38,199 nt of DNA from a virus. Positions 156-29,041 of this stretch are shown one piece after another. The position numbers and the translations under genes were made by a program. The notes below the pieces were generated by a model. It made no database searches, was not told where the DNA came from, and was given only the letters and a program-made list of their open reading frames with translations. The stretch lies in IMG/VR virus record IMGVR_UViG_3300045988_034846, positions 1 to 38,199 of that record. One strand, 5' to 3'. How positions within the stretch are numbered: the first letter of the stretch is position 1; the number at the start of each line of letters is the position of its first letter.

Positions 156-1148
156 TTACTTTGAGATTTCAGCTATATATTGACTGGCAAATTCCATCAT
201 ATCTCTTTCTTTATCGGCTTGAGCATGACGGTATACTCTCTTCATGACATTGTCTGAGCTCCAACCACCGGCACGCATGATATAGCTGTCCGGTATGCCA
301 AGTGAGTGAGCCATCGAAGCGTAATAGTGACGCAGGTCATGGAATCTAAAGTGTGGCAAACCTATACGCTTCTGCAAGGCCGATAGATTATCCCACAGGT
401 TAGTTGGATATCCTGCATAGCCTTTGCCCTGAATGCGGAGTAGATCGGCCGTGTAATCGTCTATGTATATCTTCCGTGTAGACTCATCCGTCTTGGCAAA
501 ATTCTTTAGTACAAGTTTGTTATCCTTGTTCTTGACAATGGACTTGTTGATAGCCAGCATATTTCCCTCAAGATCATCGGCAGTCACAGCACATACTTCA
601 GACCGTCTCATGCCATATACTCCTAGACGCAGAGCTAATTCATACGATGTACCTTTGGAAGCTTCGAGTATCTTCTTGATGTCGTCATCGGTCGGCTCAT
701 ACGGCACATAGCGCTCGCCAAGCGGTAAAGTGGTAGTGAGCTTAAGGTCCGGGCGGTACATAGCCACGATGGGCGATATAAAACCGTGGTAATTCTTTAC
801 TGTTTTGGCTTTTCTCTTCAAGGCTATCCTGTTAATTTCTGCCTGCACATCAGCAGAGGACAAGTCTTTCATTGGAATATTCAAAAAATCTTCACTCATC
901 GAACGCACCATAGCATCATATGAGCGCACAGTGGACGGAGAAAGGACATTTTCTTTAATGGCTATATACTGCAAGGCACAGCTCTTAAAAGTTCCCTGTG
1001 CGGCGCTGGAAGGCTTTTCAGCATATATTTTAGAAAGCACCTCGTCCACTTCCCGCTTACTTGGGAAGTGGTCAAATATAATGCGGTGCATCTTTCCGTC
1101 AATCATCTTACGGACTCGGTAGCCACTATTTTTTTTCTCAACTTTCAT
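156..1148 (-). CDS. int: Tyrosine integrase
   Basis: 330 aa. Catalytic signature is visible: R in GMRRSEV, H-x-x-R in HDLRHYY, and Y in KRVYRHA. The gene directly abuts the att core, and an SD (AAAGGAGGA) precedes the ATG. Confidence 0.9.
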   Translation of the reverse strand: MKVEKKNSGYRVRKMIDGKMHRIIFDHFPSKREVDEVLSKIYAEKPSSAAQGTFKSCALQYIAIKENVLSPSTVRSYDAMVRSMSEDFLNIPMKDLSSADVQAEINRIALKRKAKTVKNYHGFISPIVAMYRPDLKLTTTLPLGERYVPYEPTDDDIKKILEASKGTSYELALRLGVYGMRRSEVCAVTADDLEGNMLAINKSIVKNKDNKLVLKNFAKTDESTRKIYIDDYTADLLRIQGKGYAGYPTNLWDNLSALQKRIGLPHFRFHDLRHYYASMAHSLGIPDSYIMRAGGWSSDNVMKRVYRHAQADKERDMMEFASQYIAEISK

Positions 1149-2173: not shown

Positions 2174-2794
2174 CTAGAAATTACGAATCAGTTGTATTAC
2201 TTTTCCTAATATTCTGACTGGCATTGTGTCTATCTCTGACTGGCTAAATCTCATTGGCTCGTAAGCCGGATTAGTTGGGATAAGTGCAAGGCCCTCAGCA
2301 TATCTTTGCAATCGCTTACAGGTGGCATCAGAGCCATTAACTAGGGCTATAACTAAATCCCCAGTATCAGCTTCATCAGTTTTTTGAACGACGACTGTAT
2401 CACCATCTCTTAACTCAGGTACCATACTGTCGCCTTTAATTAAGAGAGCGAATAGCTCACCTCTACGCTTGAGTGCAGGCGATACTTCAATACTGCCGAT
2501 TATTTCCTCAACAGCTTCTTTTCCGTAGCCTGCTGCCACACGGCCAAGAACTGGAATACTATAGGTTAAGTCCAACTGTGTAGGCTCTATTCCATCGAAC
2601 CCCAGCAATTCGCTTGGAGTCGTGCGCAGTGCTTTGGCAAACTCACGTATTTTTGATTCAGGAATATCGACAACGCCACGTTCTATTTTTGCAATAGAGG
2701 AGCGGTCTTTATATCCGGTAAGACTAGCTAAAGTGTCTTGAGACATTTCAAGAGCATTTCTACGCTCTTTAATATTCTTATAAAGTTCGAGCAT
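2174..2794 (-). CDS. CI-like repressor: XRE HTH plus LexA-type S24 autopeptidase domain
   Basis: 206 aa. It has an N-terminal HTH (MSQDTLASLTGYKDRSSIAKIERG), a LexA-type cleavage site (GRVAAG), the catalytic Ser in GDSM and the catalytic Lys in TCKRL. Confidence 0.9.
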   Translation of the reverse strand: MLELYKNIKERRNALEMSQDTLASLTGYKDRSSIAKIERGVVDIPESKIREFAKALRTTPSELLGFDGIEPTQLDLTYSIPVLGRVAAGYGKEAVEEIIGSIEVSPALKRRGELFALLIKGDSMVPELRDGDTVVVQKTDEADTGDLVIALVNGSDATCKRLQRYAEGLALIPTNPAYEPMRFSQSEIDTMPVRILGKVIQLIRNF

Positions 2795-11248: not shown

Positions 11249-12847
11249 ATGATATACGGAGAATTAGTAATTGACAACTTTGCTGGTGGGGGCGGTGCTT
11301 CCACCGGAATAGAGTTAGCAACAGGATATAGCGTAGATATAGCCATTAACCATGATCCTGAAGCTATTAAGATGCATAAAGCCAATCATCCGAATACGAA
11401 ACACTATTGTGAAAACGTGTGGGCGGTGGATCCTGTAAAGGCTTGTAAGGGACATCCGGTTGGTCTTGCCTGGTTTTCCCCGGACTGCAAACATTTTAGT
11501 AAGGCAAAGGGCGGTAAGCCAAAGGATAAGAATATTCGTGGTCTTGCCTGGGTAGCCTGTCGGTGGGCTGGGCTTGTCAGACCAAGGGTGATAATGTTGG
11601 AGAACGTGGAAGAATTTAAGACATGGGGGCCGCTAAACAGAGGACATCATCCGATCAAATCAAAGCAGGGTAAAACATTTAAAAAATTTGTACAGCAGCT
11701 TAATGATTTAGGGTATGAGGTACAGTTCAAAGAACTGGTAGCTGCTGATTACGGAGCACCGACTATGCGTAAGCGATTTTTTATGATCGCACGGTGCGAT
11801 GGTAATCCGATTATCTGGCCAGAGCCAACACATGCACCGGCAGATAGTGAGGAAGTAAAAGCAGGATTACTCAAGCCTTATGTTGGAGCTTACACACAGA
11901 TTGATTTCAGCCGCCCATGTCCGAGTATTTTTGATACGTCCGAGGAAATCAAAGAGAAATATGGAATCCGGGCAGTGAGACCGTTGGCGCAGAAAACAAT
12001 GGACAGGATAGCAAGAGGATTGAAAAAATTTGTATTGGATAATCCAGAGCCATTTATCATTCAATGCAATCATGGCGGTGAACGCAGACCGAATGATATA
12101 AGAGATCCGATGCCGACTATCACCGGAAAGCATGGATATGGGATTGTAGAACCATATATGGTGCAAATCGGACAGACTGGATTTACAAAAGACCGAAGCA
12201 AAGATGTTAGAGAGCCACTTACCACGATTGTAAGTAAAAATGAACATTGCCTTATCAGCCCTACACTGATTCAGTATCATTCCGAAACAGTGCAAGGAGA
12301 AGTCCGGGGACAGACCATAAAGGATCCGATCATGACCGTGGATGGTTCGAACCGGTATGGGCTGGTTGCATCGTTCTTGAGTAAATTCTATAAGAGTGGC
12401 ACAGGACAAGATTTGAGAGAACCATTACATACCATAACTACATCACCTGGACATTTCGGAGAGGTCAGAGCTTTTTTAATAAAATATTATGGCCAAGGCG
12501 TAGGACAGGATATTGAAGAACCTCTGGATACAGTAACATCGAGGGATAGATTTGGCTTGGTAACGATAAAGGGTGTAGATTACCAGATTGTAGATATTGG
12601 ACTTCGGATGCTGGAACCAAGGGAGTTATACGGATGTCAGGGATTCCCGGACGATTACATAATTGATCACGACTATACCGGAAAAACATATCCAAGGAGT
12701 GAGCAAGTAAGACGTTGTGGGAACGCTGTTTGTCCGCCGATACCGGCTGCCTTGGTCAGAGCAAATTTGCCGGAATTGTGCGTGGCAAAGCGAACACCGA
12801 ACATGAGAATAGAATCAGAGCAGACCGGGCAACTTCGGTTTGCCTAG
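11249..12847 (+). CDS. DNA (cytosine-5)-methyltransferase with an expanded, internally repeated variable region
   Basis: 532 aa. Motif I is DNFAGGGGAS, motif IV is FSPDCKHFS, motif VI is MLENV, then QGFPDDY and motif X is CGNAVCPP. Five (D/E)P(L/M)xT(I/V)-type modules lie between motifs VIII and IX. Confidence 0.85.
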   Translation: MIYGELVIDNFAGGGGASTGIELATGYSVDIAINHDPEAIKMHKANHPNTKHYCENVWAVDPVKACKGHPVGLAWFSPDCKHFSKAKGGKPKDKNIRGLAWVACRWAGLVRPRVIMLENVEEFKTWGPLNRGHHPIKSKQGKTFKKFVQQLNDLGYEVQFKELVAADYGAPTMRKRFFMIARCDGNPIIWPEPTHAPADSEEVKAGLLKPYVGAYTQIDFSRPCPSIFDTSEEIKEKYGIRAVRPLAQKTMDRIARGLKKFVLDNPEPFIIQCNHGGERRPNDIRDPMPTITGKHGYGIVEPYMVQIGQTGFTKDRSKDVREPLTTIVSKNEHCLISPTLIQYHSETVQGEVRGQTIKDPIMTVDGSNRYGLVASFLSKFYKSGTGQDLREPLHTITTSPGHFGEVRAFLIKYYGQGVGQDIEEPLDTVTSRDRFGLVTIKGVDYQIVDIGLRMLEPRELYGCQGFPDDYIIDHDYTGKTYPRSEQVRRCGNAVCPPIPAALVRANLPELCVAKRTPNMRIESEQTGQLRFA

Positions 12848-24031: not shown

Positions 24032-24306
24032 GAAAAATAGTAATCTGTGGTGCCAAATGGTGTACACCATGCAAGCACGTACTCAGCACATTGAGAGTAC
24101 AGGTTGAGCAAGAGTGCCCCGGCACTACTGAATATATAGACCTGCAGGAAGAGCCGCAGGCGATTGACAGGTACAAAGTATATAAAATCCCGATGGTGAT
24201 ACTCGAAGAGGACGGAAAGCCTCTGAGGAGCTATGTCGGGACATATCCAAACCACCTTGAATTAGTCCGGTGGGTAAAAGGAGAGCTGAATGATAGAGAT
24301 TTATGA
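24028..24306 (+). CDS. Thioredoxin-fold protein (WCTPC active site)
   Basis: 92 aa. It has the active site AKWCTPCK and a cis-Pro region (YKIPMVILEEDGKPL..YVG). An ATGA overlap links it to the MuF gene. Confidence 0.75.
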   Translation: MRKIVICGAKWCTPCKHVLSTLRVQVEQECPGTTEYIDLQEEPQAIDRYKVYKIPMVILEEDGKPLRSYVGTYPNHLELVRWVKGELNDRDL

Positions 24307-24577
24307 GACATCGACAAGTCTGGCAGTAAACGGCCACGCCAATGCAGGAGTTAAGGGCGAGTCGGTACCGTGTGAAGCGGTAACTGCCATGATTAACATG
24401 TTTGTGATGGGCGTCGACCACTATCAGAACATTGAATATGAGCTTGAGAGCGGGCATTTTTACATCAATTTAAAGCAGATAGTATATGTCTGCGACCCGA
24501 TTCTTGAAGCGTTGAAATTAGGCTTGCAATCCGTAGCGGAAGCATATCCGGAATACATCAGCTACGAAAAAGCATAG
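24290..24577 (+). CDS. prp: Prp-like cysteine protease (ribosomal-processing protease family, DUF464 / peptidase C108)
   Basis: 95 aa. GHA (His16), then Cys28 in ESVPCEAVTAM with 12-residue His-Cys spacing, then SGHFYI and a C-terminal ...LQSVAEAYPEYISYE. These occur in the same order as in bacterial Prp/YsxB. Confidence 0.75.
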   Translation: MIEIYETSTSLAVNGHANAGVKGESVPCEAVTAMINMFVMGVDHYQNIEYELESGHFYINLKQIVYVCDPILEALKLGLQSVAEAYPEYISYEKA

Positions 24578-24578
24578 A

Positions 24579-24680
24579 AATGGCCAAGCATTGAAGCCAT
24601 AAAAAGCTATGGAATGACCAAGCGTTGAAGTCGTTAAAAGCCACGGAATATAAGTTAAGCATTGGAACTCTAAACTATGG
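24579..24680 (+). repeat. Three degenerate tandem 34-bp units in the prp-scaffold intergenic region
   Basis: AATGGCCAAGCATTGAAGCCATAAAAAGCTATGG / AATGACCAAGCGTTGAAGTCGTTAAAAGCCACGG (27/34 identical) / AATATAAGTTAAGCATTGGAACTCTAAACTATGG (more diverged). Confidence 0.7.
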
Positions 24681-24693
24681 AAGGAGAAACGAC

Positions 24694-25353
24694 ATGAAAA
24701 AGAAATTGAACTACTGGACACAGCTCTTCGAGGACGGCACAGACGATACCAAGGGAGCAGATAACAAGAACACAGACACTAAGAGCACTGACGGCTCTAA
24801 AGACAGCAAAGCGGGCGATGACTCCAAAGACAGCTCCAAGGGAGACGACAAAAAAGGAGAACCCGAAAAGAAGTACACCGATGAGGATGTTAATAGAATC
24901 GTTCAGGAAAGGCTCAAGAGAGAGCGTGAGAAGAATGACGAAGCCAAGAAGCTTGAGGGTATGTCAGCTCAGGAGCGTGCAGAGCATGAGAGAGACGCAC
25001 TCAAAAAGGAGCTTGACGAGCTCAAAAAGGCTGACGCACTCAACAAGATGGCACAGGAAGCCCGCAAGATGCTCTCGAATGAGAAAATCAATGTCTCTGA
25101 CGGCTTGGTTAATATGATGGTAACATCAGAGGCCAAGACCACTAAGGAGAATGTTGACAACTTTATCAAAATGTTCAAGGTAGCAGTACAGGACGCAGTT
25201 AAGGACAGCCTGAGAGGCAAAGCTCCGACAACCGGCGGAAGTTCAACTCTGACTCGTGCCGAACTCGATAAGAAACTGGCTGAGATTGCTAGTCCTGTAG
25301 AGAGGCAGCGATTGATAGCTCAACACATTGACCTATTTACGAAAGGAAAATAA
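24694..25353 (+). CDS. Scaffolding protein (DUF4355-like)
   Basis: 219 aa from the ATG behind GGAAGGAG (the track's 24625 start runs through the tandem repeats). It is acidic and coiled-coil rich, sits directly upstream of the capsid gene, and has an N-terminal ...TQLFE leader-like motif. Confidence 0.8.
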   Translation: MKKKLNYWTQLFEDGTDDTKGADNKNTDTKSTDGSKDSKAGDDSKDSSKGDDKKGEPEKKYTDEDVNRIVQERLKREREKNDEAKKLEGMSAQERAEHERDALKKELDELKKADALNKMAQEARKMLSNEKINVSDGLVNMMVTSEAKTTKENVDNFIKMFKVAVQDAVKDSLRGKAPTTGGSSTLTRAELDKKLAEIASPVERQRLIAQHIDLFTKGK

Positions 25354-25355
25354 TT

Positions 25356-26312
25356 ATGAACAAGAACAGAACTATTGCATACAGAAAGCAGCTCTTCGCA
25401 CCGGAGACCAACACCACAGTTGCAGCAGACCTTGAGCCGGTCATTTCGATTGACCACACCAACCGGTTGGTAGCAGGCCTCAAGACACTCTTAACAGTAC
25501 TCGGCATCGTAGACATGAAGCCGATGGCAGAGGGTACTACCGTCAAGATGTACAAGACCACACAGAAGAACACACCAGATCAGGTTGCTGAGGGCGAGGT
25601 AATCGGTCTTACAAAGGTAGAGAGAAAGCTCGTTAAGACTTTTGAACTCGTGCTTAAGAAGTTTAGAAAGTCTACCACAGCCGAAGCAATCCAGAAGGTC
25701 GGCAAGGATAAGGCAGTCAATGAGACCGATACAGTCTTCATGAGAAATATCCAGAAGGGTATCAAGGCTGACTTTTTTACATTTATCAAGGCAGGTACAG
25801 GCGTAGCCACAAACCTTGCAGAGAAGAAAGCTACAGCTTCAAACTCTATTCAGGGAGCTATTGCAGGAGTATGGGCTAAGCTCTCAGCTTACTTTGAGGA
25901 TATGGATGTAGAGCCTATCTACTTCCTTAATCCTCTTGATATCGCAACATACCTTGCCAACACAGCCATCACAGTGCAGACAGCTTTCGGTTTCCAGTAC
26001 GTGGAGAACTTCCTCGGACTCGGCACAGTAGTGCTCGATAATTCTGTAGAAATCGGCAAGGTAAAGGGTACAGTTAAGCAGAACCTTAACGCGGTGTATA
26101 TCCCAACATCCGGAGCAGTAGGCTCTACATTCGGTATGACATCTGACGAGACCGGCATGGTGGCTATGAAGCACTTCCTCGACGATAAGACTGCTGCCAT
26201 CAACACACTTGTGTTCGAGGGTGTGACTTTCTACGCTGAGGATGCATCAGGTATCTTTACAGCTCCGATTGCTGTAGAAGCAGCCACAGTTGCAGCATCT
26301 GATCAGAAATAG
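25356..26312 (+). CDS. Major capsid protein
   Basis: 318 aa. The call rests on position after the scaffold and on size. The N-terminus MNKNRTIAYRKQLFAPE carries an L27/Prp-type leader. Confidence 0.8.
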   Translation: MNKNRTIAYRKQLFAPETNTTVAADLEPVISIDHTNRLVAGLKTLLTVLGIVDMKPMAEGTTVKMYKTTQKNTPDQVAEGEVIGLTKVERKLVKTFELVLKKFRKSTTAEAIQKVGKDKAVNETDTVFMRNIQKGIKADFFTFIKAGTGVATNLAEKKATASNSIQGAIAGVWAKLSAYFEDMDVEPIYFLNPLDIATYLANTAITVQTAFGFQYVENFLGLGTVVLDNSVEIGKVKGTVKQNLNAVYIPTSGAVGSTFGMTSDETGMVAMKHFLDDKTAAINTLVFEGVTFYAEDASGIFTAPIAVEAATVAASDQK

Positions 26313-27738: not shown

Positions 27739-28281
27739 ATGAAATACAACAAACAGTTATTCGGAAACGAAGCCGCCTCAGAGACAACAACAGGCTTTGA
27801 TAAGGGCGTTTACTGTGATTTTTCAGCGAATGCAGTTAAGGCACTCGCAGGCAAGGATATCTTACTTGCAGTATGGAACGCAGAAGGCACAGCTATCAGC
27901 GCTATCGCAGGCCAGCAGAGCCTTAAGCTCAATCGTTCAGCTGATTCTATCGAAGTAACAACCAAAGATACCGGAGACGGTTGGAAAGCATACATCGCAG
28001 GATCTAAGGAGTGGTCAATAGACACGGATGGTCTGTACATCAACACAGATGCATCAATGCAGGCACTCTCTACAGCTTTCGAGAATGGTGACCCGGTATG
28101 CATTAAAGTATACAACAAGAAGACCAAAAAGAGTATGTTTGGCGGTCTTGCAGTTATTACAGACTTCCCACTTGAGGCACCTTATGACGACTCAATGACT
28201 TACTCTATCTCACTCAAGGGACAGGGCAAGCTCGTGGATCTGAGCTCTAACCCTGTAACACCTGACACATTACCTGCATAG
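27739..28281 (+). CDS. Major tail protein (phi13 / Phage_tail_2-like)
   Basis: 180 aa. It has the pattern GKDILLAVWNAEG...IAGQQSLKLNRSADSIEVTTKD...WKAYIAGSKEWSIDTDGLY. The call also rests on position. Confidence 0.75.
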   Translation: MKYNKQLFGNEAASETTTGFDKGVYCDFSANAVKALAGKDILLAVWNAEGTAISAIAGQQSLKLNRSADSIEVTTKDTGDGWKAYIAGSKEWSIDTDGLYINTDASMQALSTAFENGDPVCIKVYNKKTKKSMFGGLAVITDFPLEAPYDDSMTYSISLKGQGKLVDLSSNPVTPDTLPA

Positions 28282-28331: not shown

Positions 28332-28640
28332 ATGTTCGAAGTAAACGGAAAACAATATGATTTTGATTTTAACACAGAGAGGGTTTCAATGGTAGAGGCT
28401 GCTGCTAAGACAGCTATCATGGGCGAATACTCCAACACCAACGGCTTATTCTCGCTCAAGACTATGAATGTGATGTTTCAGCTTGCGGCAAAAGAGGTAG
28501 GCTCTGACAAATTCCTTGGACAGACAGAGGGTGCCAAGCTCTTTGAGGATGCACTCAAGGAGAGAGGCTATGCCACTATCGCAGTCGAGATTCAGTCAGC
28601 TCTAATGAGAGATACACCTTTTTTATTCCAAGCCAACTAG
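28332..28640 (+). CDS. Tail assembly chaperone (gpG-like)
   Basis: 102 aa. It lies between the major tail and tape measure genes and ends just after a slippery heptamer. Confidence 0.75.
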   Translation: MFEVNGKQYDFDFNTERVSMVEAAAKTAIMGEYSNTNGLFSLKTMNVMFQLAAKEVGSDKFLGQTEGAKLFEDALKERGYATIAVEIQSALMRDTPFLFQAN

Positions 28641-29041
28641 TCGCGAATGAGTATTTTGACGAGCCGAACGAAACTCCTGCAGAAAAAGAGCTGAGAAGGC
28701 CCTACCTGCAGGACATAGATTTTGCTTGGTTCGTTGTTAATTTCAATTATACGAAAGCCGATTATTTGGCTCTGACTCCACGCGAAAAAGCCTTCATATA
28801 CAAGGCTTACGAAACTAAGACAGTCAATCAATCAACGCTGCTACGAGACACAGTCCTGAACGCTATAAGCAACAGCAAGCGTAGACGAGGGGCGAGCGTG
28901 TTCAAGCTATGGAAAAAGCGAGCCAAGAAGGCTGACATATCCACAGTTCGAGACAACATGAAAGTCATAGCAGAGATTGAGAAGAACGAAGTAGGTTGGA
29001 TAGATAAGATATATGCAGCCAACGGATGGACAAGGAAGTAG
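28332..29041 (+). CDS. Tail assembly chaperone frameshift product (gpGT-like, -1 programmed frameshift)
   Basis: The slippery T_TTT_TTA lies at 28619-28625 in the G frame. The -1 frame is open from there to 29041, and the track ORF 28766-29041 is in that frame. Confidence 0.7.

Follow-up and report, generated by a model that had tools for sequence, protein, structure and literature searches.

A virus genome segment of 38,199 nucleotides (IMG/VR record IMGVR_UViG_3300045988_034846, positions 1 to 38,199; hereafter the window) encodes, at positions 24290-24577, a 95-residue protein of the Prp family of cysteine proteases (YsxB; MEROPS C108, Pfam PF04327). The gene, prp, lies within the head-morphogenesis module, and its product is probably an active, phage-specific protease that cuts Gln-hydrophobic-Phe leaders after the Phe. 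Prp is an essential, Firmicutes-specific antibiotic target, and its link to phages has so far been one case, in which host Prp acts on phage 80alpha. The window belongs to a clade of phages of gut and lactic acid bacteria in which a divergent Prp of the phage itself is accompanied by leaders on the scaffold, capsid and tail tube proteins; sister phages have neither Prp nor leaders.

Phage homologues of Prp are already catalogued: as PHROG 4478 'peptidase', as RefSeq 'peptidase' (phiFL3A gp45, BL3 gp6 and Oenococcus phages) and in BFVD under the names 'YsxB-like protein' or 'Cysteine protease'. The literature searched yielded no report of a phage-encoded Prp or of its link to leader-tagged structural proteins, although the founding Prp papers may mention homologues, and no functional study of PHROG 4478-type genes. 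A preprint from the discoverers of Prp describes the rescue of L27 cleavage by a mobile element with phage Prp unmentioned, and the purpose of the leader is still called unclear in the Prp field (bioRxiv 10.64898/2026.08.10.744006). Protease and leader are present in the clade described here and absent in its sisters, which thus provides a natural comparative system for the role of the leader and of its removal; cultured members (phiFL3A, BL3, Fontainebleau and DO134P1) are available. In practice, a prophage Prp might complement host Prp, as the mobile-element protease of Streptococcus pneumoniae TIGR4 does.

A divergent Prp-family protease encoded by a phage

The prp open reading frame (ORF) starts with ATG, with an AAAGGAG ribosome-binding site 7 nt upstream. 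Its resemblance to Prp had been predicted from a His16/Cys28 pair at the spacing of the Prp dyad. The ORF is real and reads as it was quoted in that original prediction, and profile searches place it in the family: residues 7-90 match Pfam Peptidase_Prp (PF04327) with 46.2 bits against a gathering cut-off of 27 (E 5.3e-12), and PHROG 4478 'peptidase' is matched with E 1.6e-11. The best sequence matches in the PDB are Prp of S. aureus (4PEO/7KLD, 7JVS), S. mutans SMU.848 and S. pneumoniae 2IDL. The GHA motif (residues 15-17) and Cys28 align without gaps to GHA and Cys34 of S. aureus Prp (4PEO/7KLD), and the SGHF motif aligns to GGHF of the same protein, as had been proposed. H16 and C28, 12 residues apart, are thus equivalent to the S. 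aureus dyad H22/C34.

The predicted fold agrees with this assignment. An AlphaFold2 (AF2) model with a pLDDT of 90.6, built with 121 homologues as input, has the order strand-strand-helix-strand-strand-helix-strand. When it was compared with the PDB using Foldseek, the top 14 matches were all Prp structures, and the following match had an E of 0.026. Superposition on a Prp crystal structure, which the original prediction had suggested, gave the best result with substrate-bound S. aureus Prp (7jvs_B; TM 0.86, root-mean-square deviation 2.2 Å), while identity to the solved Prp structures was about 18-23% in the Foldseek alignments. Residues G15, H16, G23 and C28 do not vary among the 121 homologues, nor do H16 and C28 in an alignment of 24 sequences; the four map to G21, H22, G29 and C34 of S. 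aureus Prp, each of which is needed for activity, G21 and G29 being hinge glycines that flank the flexible loop of that enzyme (PMC9405229). Among 20 IMG/VR alleles of the window gene, 41 synonymous and 17 nonsynonymous codon variants were found (pN/pS ~0.12), and residues 9-41 are invariant except for N18H. Given this synonymous excess and the near-invariance of residues 9-41, the protein is under purifying selection.

The gene was also considered as a captured host ribosomal prp, and this possibility was rejected on equivalog scores and gene context. None of the nine NCBIfam equivalog models of ribosomal Prp was reached (16-26 bits against cut-offs of 122-225), and the gene lies between the MuF/thioredoxin-like genes and the scaffold gene, not between rplU (L21) and rpmA (L27) as host prp does; the host arrangement, rplU-prp-rpmA, is seen in Facklamia lactis. 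Judged by its sequence, the window Prp is a member of a divergent phage subfamily and not a host copy. Its closest relative beyond its own cluster, found by an exhaustive HMMER search of 1.84 billion representatives, is 36% identical. A word-indexed protein search returned the own cluster only, and cultured phages yielded a single weak tblastn match when the ORF served as sole query; relatives were recovered by the exhaustive HMMER search and by a profile. Long repetitive proteins among the representative matches (e.g. P0004) were discarded as false positives due to repeats.

L27-type leaders on six late proteins

When the N-termini of all genes in the window were read, six late proteins were found to carry an L27-type leader ending in Gln-hydrophobic-Phe: the scaffold, the major capsid protein, the tail tube protein and three small proteins with a GGRG sequence (Table 1; arrows mark predicted cuts). 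The scaffold starts at an internal ATG (24694) preceded by a GGAAGGAG ribosome-binding site, and its leader is conserved among relatives. Defined as Q-[hydrophobic]-[F/H]-small within the first 22 residues, the motif occurs at a rate of 2.9e-4 per residue in six-frame translation, so that 0.33 N-terminal occurrences are expected in 61 genes and 6 are observed (Poisson P 1.4e-6); as the motif was partly defined post hoc, the comparative evidence given below weighs more than this P value. The Gln at P3 is present in 6/6 leaders, and P3 Gln is critical in the structure of the S. aureus Prp complex (PMC9405229).

The leaders resemble those of S. aureus L27 (MLKLNLQFF↓ASKK), the 80alpha scaffold (..FNLQFF↓ADQS), Facklamia L27 (MLKLNLQLF↓ATKK) and Eubacterium rectale L27 (MLNMNLQFF↓AHKK; PMC9405229), and that of GGRG protein 2 matches the end of the Lachnospiraceae L27 leader. 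A relative of GGRG protein 3 with 73% identity, encoded in locus L036, begins MVMNLQYF↓GGRGG. After the cut, L27 has A or S, whereas the predicted phage substrates show a wider range (A, G, E, D, T, S and V); the structure of S. aureus Prp points to a limit on residue size at these positions (PMC9405229).

These features suggest the following mechanism, of which catalysis, the precise positions of the cuts and the motive for a private enzyme are our inference. Prp would be expressed together with the late morphogenesis genes and would recognize proteins by a short N-terminal extension with Gln-hydrophobic-Phe as its last residues; this motif is taken off ribosomal protein L27 by host Prp. The phage enzyme would cut after the Phe of the leader in the scaffold (F12↓E13), the major capsid protein (F14↓A15), the tail tube protein (F8↓G9) and the three small basic proteins (F↓GGRGGG). 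The leader would then be a removable add-on to proteins that related phages make leaderless. An enzyme of its own might give the phage enough capacity for late proteins made in very large amounts, or free it from the specificity of host Prp; both are plausible, the latter because the post-cut residues vary more than the A/S of L27. Such processing has a precedent, as host Prp cleaves the 80alpha capsid and scaffold proteins at the leader motif, which is also found on a phi13 tail protein (PMC5744158). The original prediction had the phage bring its own leader peptidase for capsid maturation; family, fold, dyad and hinge glycines, position, the lack of another prohead protease, leaders and comparative co-occurrence all support the phage-borne peptidase, but the candidate substrates extend beyond the capsid to the tube and the three GGRG proteins.

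Co-occurrence of Prp and leaders in related phages

A profile for distant homologues retrieved 2090 proteins, all with PF04327, and three homologues were placed in their genomic context. Two of them, 25-28% identical to the window Prp, lie in the order terS, terL, SPP1 portal, MuF, small ORF, Prp, DUF4355 scaffold and capsid, with leaders DLQLF↓AD, DIQLF↓AE and MINLQIF↓AE in the first locus and FLQMF↓TE, DLQMF↓TA and MINLQLF↓GN in the second. In a phage within a Eubacteriales metagenome-assembled genome, terL and portal-MuF are followed by Prp, scaffold (FLQLF↓AD) and capsid (DLQLF↓AD). This layout, with its leaders on scaffold, capsid and tube, is shared by relatives whose Prp is just 25-28% identical, namely loci L021, L022 and L023 and four cultured phages. 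The scaffold, capsid and tail leaders are, respectively, LNLQFF↓AE, MNLQIF↓AA and DLQLL↓AG in Enterococcus phage phiFL3A (Prp: gp45); MNLQLF↓AE, MNLQKF↓AA and MDLQKF↓AG in Brochothrix phage BL3 (gp6); NLQLF↓DD, NLQLF↓DT and DLQLF↓DE in Acutalibacter phage Fontainebleau; and ANLQLF↓AE, GLQVF↓TA and GLQVF↓SE in Dorea phage DO134P1. The prp gene of the latter is unannotated and lies between genes 00011 and 00010 (L157, ~11590-11874; GenBank OP172779.1, 7427-7711).

A portal-based sweep of IMG/VR gave 80 loci. Prp, in 50 distinct sequences, is present in 64 of them; the other 16 all stop short of the scaffold gene, and Prp is kept in 64/64 contigs that reach it. In these 64 contigs the leader is present on 62/63 scaffolds, 61/62 capsid proteins and 52/56 tube proteins. 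In the streptococcal phages T12, Javan271, Javan149 and P738, whose portals are ~50-52% identical, neither Prp nor leader was found, and the homologous DUF4355 scaffold, capsid and tube are kept. The leaderless capsid homologues of Javan271, P738 and Javan149 start within a few residues of the predicted cut, and the leaderless streptococcal tube homologues start ~10 residues past it. That leaderless homologues begin near the predicted cut sites argues that the leaders are removed.

The third homologue placed in context (L020, 8001-8300, on a 50-kb phage contig) lies between ribonucleotide reductase and dUTPase genes instead of in a head module, a placement that hints at a different use of the enzyme. 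Were phage Prp to act mainly on host pre-L27, in ribosome maturation or as a second copy in the lysogen, with the phage leaders incidental, a location among nucleotide-metabolism genes rather than head genes would be easier to understand, and a mobile-element alternative L27 protease has been reported to rescue a prp deletion in S. pneumoniae TIGR4 (bioRxiv 10.64898/2026.08.10.744006). We nevertheless regard this role as very unlikely for the window enzyme, the gene for which is embedded in the late head operon, overlaps its upstream neighbour and co-varies with leader-tagged structural proteins, and the score of which against the nine ribosomal equivalog models is just 16-26 bits.

Weighing the role of the phage enzyme

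Several observations weigh against an active phage enzyme that processes these leaders. The cleavage is predicted from sequence and model. Two candidate substrates are atypical: GGRG protein 3 has His at the predicted P1 (leader at 19637-19660) and may be uncleaved or poorly cleaved there, and the scaffold has Glu-Asp after the cut, both of which are unusual among known Prp substrates (PMC9405229). Cleavage of the 80alpha capsid protein is dispensable (PMC5744158), and by analogy leader processing may not be essential here either. The host presumably has its own essential Prp able to do the job. A scan of genome contigs found none with this prophage, and the host L27 was not recovered; the host is likely to be Lachnospiraceae-like, because the portal of Dorea phage DO134P1 is 64% identical and a DUF4417 homologue is labelled Roseburia. 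Finally, Brochothrix phage BtpYZU01 has a scaffold leader (KLNVQYF↓AE) with no Prp in the locus examined and, by analogy with 80alpha, probably relies on host Prp.

BtpYZU01 thus lends itself to the alternative that the essential Prp of the host takes off the leaders, the phage copy being redundant, a boost of capacity or a means to broaden host range. The capsid and scaffold of 80alpha are processed by host Prp alone (PMC5744158), the MNLQFF of GGRG protein 2 has its match in the L27 leader of Lachnospiraceae, and locus L036 has a leader-GGRG protein without a leader-tagged head module. However, a redundant copy would not readily account for a phage gene that is under purifying selection and kept in every related contig reaching the scaffold, for the fact that Prp-less relatives of the same head module are also leaderless, or for post-cut residues (E, G, D and T) unlike the A or S of L27. 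We therefore consider processing by host Prp unlikely as the main explanation, and favour the phage enzyme as the one that cuts.

Two residues of the enzyme itself also count against its activity. The equivalent of S. aureus Asp31, conserved in at least 90% of the family, is Ser25 (GESVPC versus consensus GxDIVC), fixed in 20/20 alleles, and the equivalent of Ser38 in helix 1 is Thr32. In S. aureus Prp, Asp31 steadies the flexible loop and caps helix 1, and the D31A and S38A variants are inactive (PMC9405229). The Ser in place of Asp31 is, from the alignment, a real departure from S. aureus Prp. Both changes could be accommodated if the protein had a Prp fold with weakened catalysis and, instead of cutting the leaders, bound them as a chaperone or timer of assembly; assembly of 80alpha requires the scaffold leader but not its cleavage (PMC5744158). 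Yet His16, Cys28 and both hinge glycines are strictly conserved, and the start positions of leaderless homologues near the predicted cuts point to removal rather than binding. Ser is itself a good helix N-cap residue, and Thr for Ser is a conservative change that is also seen in homologues P0002, P0003 and P0015. A non-cutting role is, in our view, extremely improbable.

The GGRG module and DUF4417

The three GGRG proteins of the window exemplify a module, (M..)NLQ[F/Y]F↓GGRG(G/A/S)S.G, which heads small, often basic proteins and is found three times in tandem in the window (18766-20044) and in loci L038-L155. It marks a widespread, uncharacterised class of phage proteins and represents a lead separate from the protease. 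NLQ[F/Y]F-GGRG is present in at least 119 IMG/VR contigs; among the matches listed, it is always at the extreme N-terminus and is carried by 74 distinct proteins with at least 14 unrelated C-terminal families. The literature searched contained no paper on the NLQFFGG motif, and a removable NLQFF↓GGRG module on at least 14 unrelated families may be new. No significant Pfam, PHROG or NCBIfam match was found for the three GGRG proteins of the window. Pfam likewise gave none for eight representatives taken from other GGRG families, and their PHROG matches were 9479 (unknown function), 7153 and two marginal ones on one protein. A tagged protein of 232 residues in locus L041 has an HEMGH zincin motif and a weak match to PHROG 7153 'zinc-finger protease'; as judged from these motifs, it shows that enzymatic cargo can carry the NLQFF↓GGRG tag.

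A DUF4417 gene lies immediately upstream, and often overlaps, in 85/118 listed NLQFFGGRG loci, with terS or terL downstream. The DUF4417-GGRG order is also seen in cultured Streptococcus, Dorea and Roseburia phages, for example in phage A25 (gp22-gp23; L242) and the Dorea phage (genes 00019-00018; L157). For DUF4417, neither the sequence nor the AF2 model (pLDDT 86) had a significant match in the PDB.

Leaderless GGRG homologues begin M-GGRG in Dorea phage DO134P1 (L157, 5698-6093), S. pyogenes phage A25 (L242, ~2501), Javan377 (L243, 2507-2911) and an IMG/VR phage (L036, 8404); the annotated start of A25 gp23 is probably 9 codons too far downstream. These homologues share the mature end and therefore support cleavage exactly after the Phe. 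The mature GGRG end seems to be the selected feature, reached by leader removal or by Met excision. More speculatively, the L27-type leader could be a portable, removable tag that these phages attach to a variety of unrelated late proteins and take off again with a Prp dedicated to it, a private system comparable to the capsid-targeting sequence and gp21 of T4. The GGRG clients would then be a polymorphic set of possibly packaged or injected effectors, and a prophage Prp could also blunt Prp-targeted antibiotics by backing up host Prp; we put this forward as a tentative idea that is more doubtful than not.

Comparison with known processing systems

The window enzyme shares with bacterial Prp a common fold, the His/Cys dyad, the hinge glycines and a similar size, and the predicted recognition motif, (N)LQ-hydrophobic-F with a cut after Phe, is identical. 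It differs in being encoded in a phage head module, whereas the bacterial gene lies between rplU and rpmA, in a shorter N-terminal hairpin that places the catalytic His at 16 instead of 22 in S. aureus Prp, and in predicted substrates with E or G after the cut, unlike bacterial L27. The head-module peptidases of PHROG 4478 (phiFL3A gp45, BL3 gp6 and those of Fontainebleau, Oenococcus phages phiS11/phiS13 and Lactococcus phages TP712/PLgT-1) are of the same family, occupy the same position between portal/MuF and scaffold, and accompany leaders on scaffold, capsid and tail tube. Identity to them is 25-35%, and the window lineage adds the thioredoxin-like gene and the three leader-tagged GGRG proteins.

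The only other member of MEROPS clan CR is the capsid-processing cysteine protease of phage Cp-1 (PMC9405229), and the window Prp model has a structural match in SOCP, a Cp-1-like phage protein. Like Prp, the Cp-1 protease is a clan CR cysteine protease, and it removes an N-terminal extension of the capsid protein. It belongs to another family within the clan, is found in podoviruses and removes ~40 residues as compared with 6-14; no L27-like motif has been reported for it. Rrp (SP_1145), the mobile-element L27 protease of S. pneumoniae TIGR4 (bioRxiv 10.64898/2026.08.10.744006), is likewise a horizontally carried protease, and is able to act on the L27 leader. In contrast to the window enzyme, Rrp is an Ntn-hydrolase of Anbu-like type with low specificity and no homology to Prp, and is unlinked to phage structural genes.

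An analogous role is played by the prohead proteases of the HK97 gp4/T4 gp21 type, which are encoded in head modules and trim capsid, scaffold and internal proteins during maturation; these are serine enzymes with a fold unrelated to that of Prp, are packaged within the prohead and remove longer segments. The internal proteins of T4 are small, basic and polymorphic, with a short cleavable N-terminal capsid-targeting sequence that is removed by the maturation protease. The GGRG proteins resemble them by analogy, with no sequence relation, and GGRG packaging is hypothetical. Unlike in T4, leaderless MGGRG variants exist, so the leader is not the sole functional element.

Organization of the window

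The window is the genome of a gut prophage, a temperate siphophage with 44.7% G+C, and also encodes an ERF recombinase and a C5 methylase (Table 1). All ORFs between and including the portal and capsid genes could be assigned; they encode the SPP1 portal, the MuF protein, the thioredoxin-like protein, Prp, the DUF4355 scaffold and the major capsid protein. Neither Pfam nor PHROG identified an S78, U9, U35, S49 or S14 (HK97/T4/ClpP-type) protease domain among them, in agreement with the earlier observation that no HK97/ClpP-type protease is present between portal and capsid. The MuF protein was considered as a second protease on account of the PHROG 595 label 'head maturation protease' and dismissed, as the label stems from the MuF domain. 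Apart from Prp, the S24 repressor is the sole product with a peptidase domain among the ORFs scanned.

Table 1 Positions of features in the window, with matches and predicted leaders
Feature	Position	Strand	Match, leader or other details
Integrase	156-1148	-	
S24 repressor	2174-2794		Peptidase domain
DUF4417 gene	18141-18776	+	Pfam DUF4417, 195 bits; precedes GGRG genes
GGRG protein 1	18766-19314	+	182 residues, net charge +15; MRYRAQIF↓GGRGGGSGRGGGG, predicted cut F↓GGRGGG
GGRG protein 2	19317-19628	+	103 residues; MNLQFF↓GGRGGGSGRG
GGRG protein 3	19637-20044	+	135 residues, net charge +13; MRMNLQYH↓GGRGGGSSRGGG, predicted cut H↓GGRGGG
terS	20062-20508		
terL	to 21739		
SPP1-type portal protein	21739-23133	+	Pfam SPP1_portal, 416 bits
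MuF-like minor head protein	23045-24031	+	Pfam Phage_Mu_F, 40.5 bits; PHROG 115
Thioredoxin-like gene (WCTPC)	24028-24306	+	Pfam Thioredoxin, 33.3 bits
prp, Prp-family cysteine protease	24290-24577	+	95 residues; Pfam PF04327, PHROG 4478, AF2/Foldseek
Scaffolding protein (DUF4355)	24694-25353	+	Pfam DUF4355, 85 bits; PHROG 172; predicted leader MKKKLNYWTQLF↓EDG, 24694-24729
Major capsid protein	25356-26312	+	PHROG 544; predicted leader MNKNRTIAYRKQLF↓APE, 25356-25397
Tail tube protein	27739-28281	+	Pfam Phage_tail_2, 111 bits; PHROG 1407; predicted leader MKYNKQLF↓GNE, 27739-27762
GH25 lysin	36998-38014		

The thioredoxin-like gene, the TIGR01068 match of which falls under the cut-off, shares a 17-nt overlap with the start of prp. 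A thioredoxin-like CxxC gene is directly upstream of prp in 18/80 surveyed loci, five divergent lineages among them, and 0-375 nt upstream in 17/64 Prp-positive loci. This adjacency suggests a link to the thiol enzyme Prp.

The prp and scaffold genes are separated by a gap of 116 nt, and positions 24567-24674 contain 2-3 tandem copies of a ~34-nt repeat with the pattern AAAAAGC.T.G.AATG.CCAAGC.TTGAAG.C.T. Connector genes lie between the major capsid protein and the tail tube. The tail tube and tape measure genes flank two small ORFs (28332-28640 and 28766-29041) that resemble the usual pair of tail chaperones.

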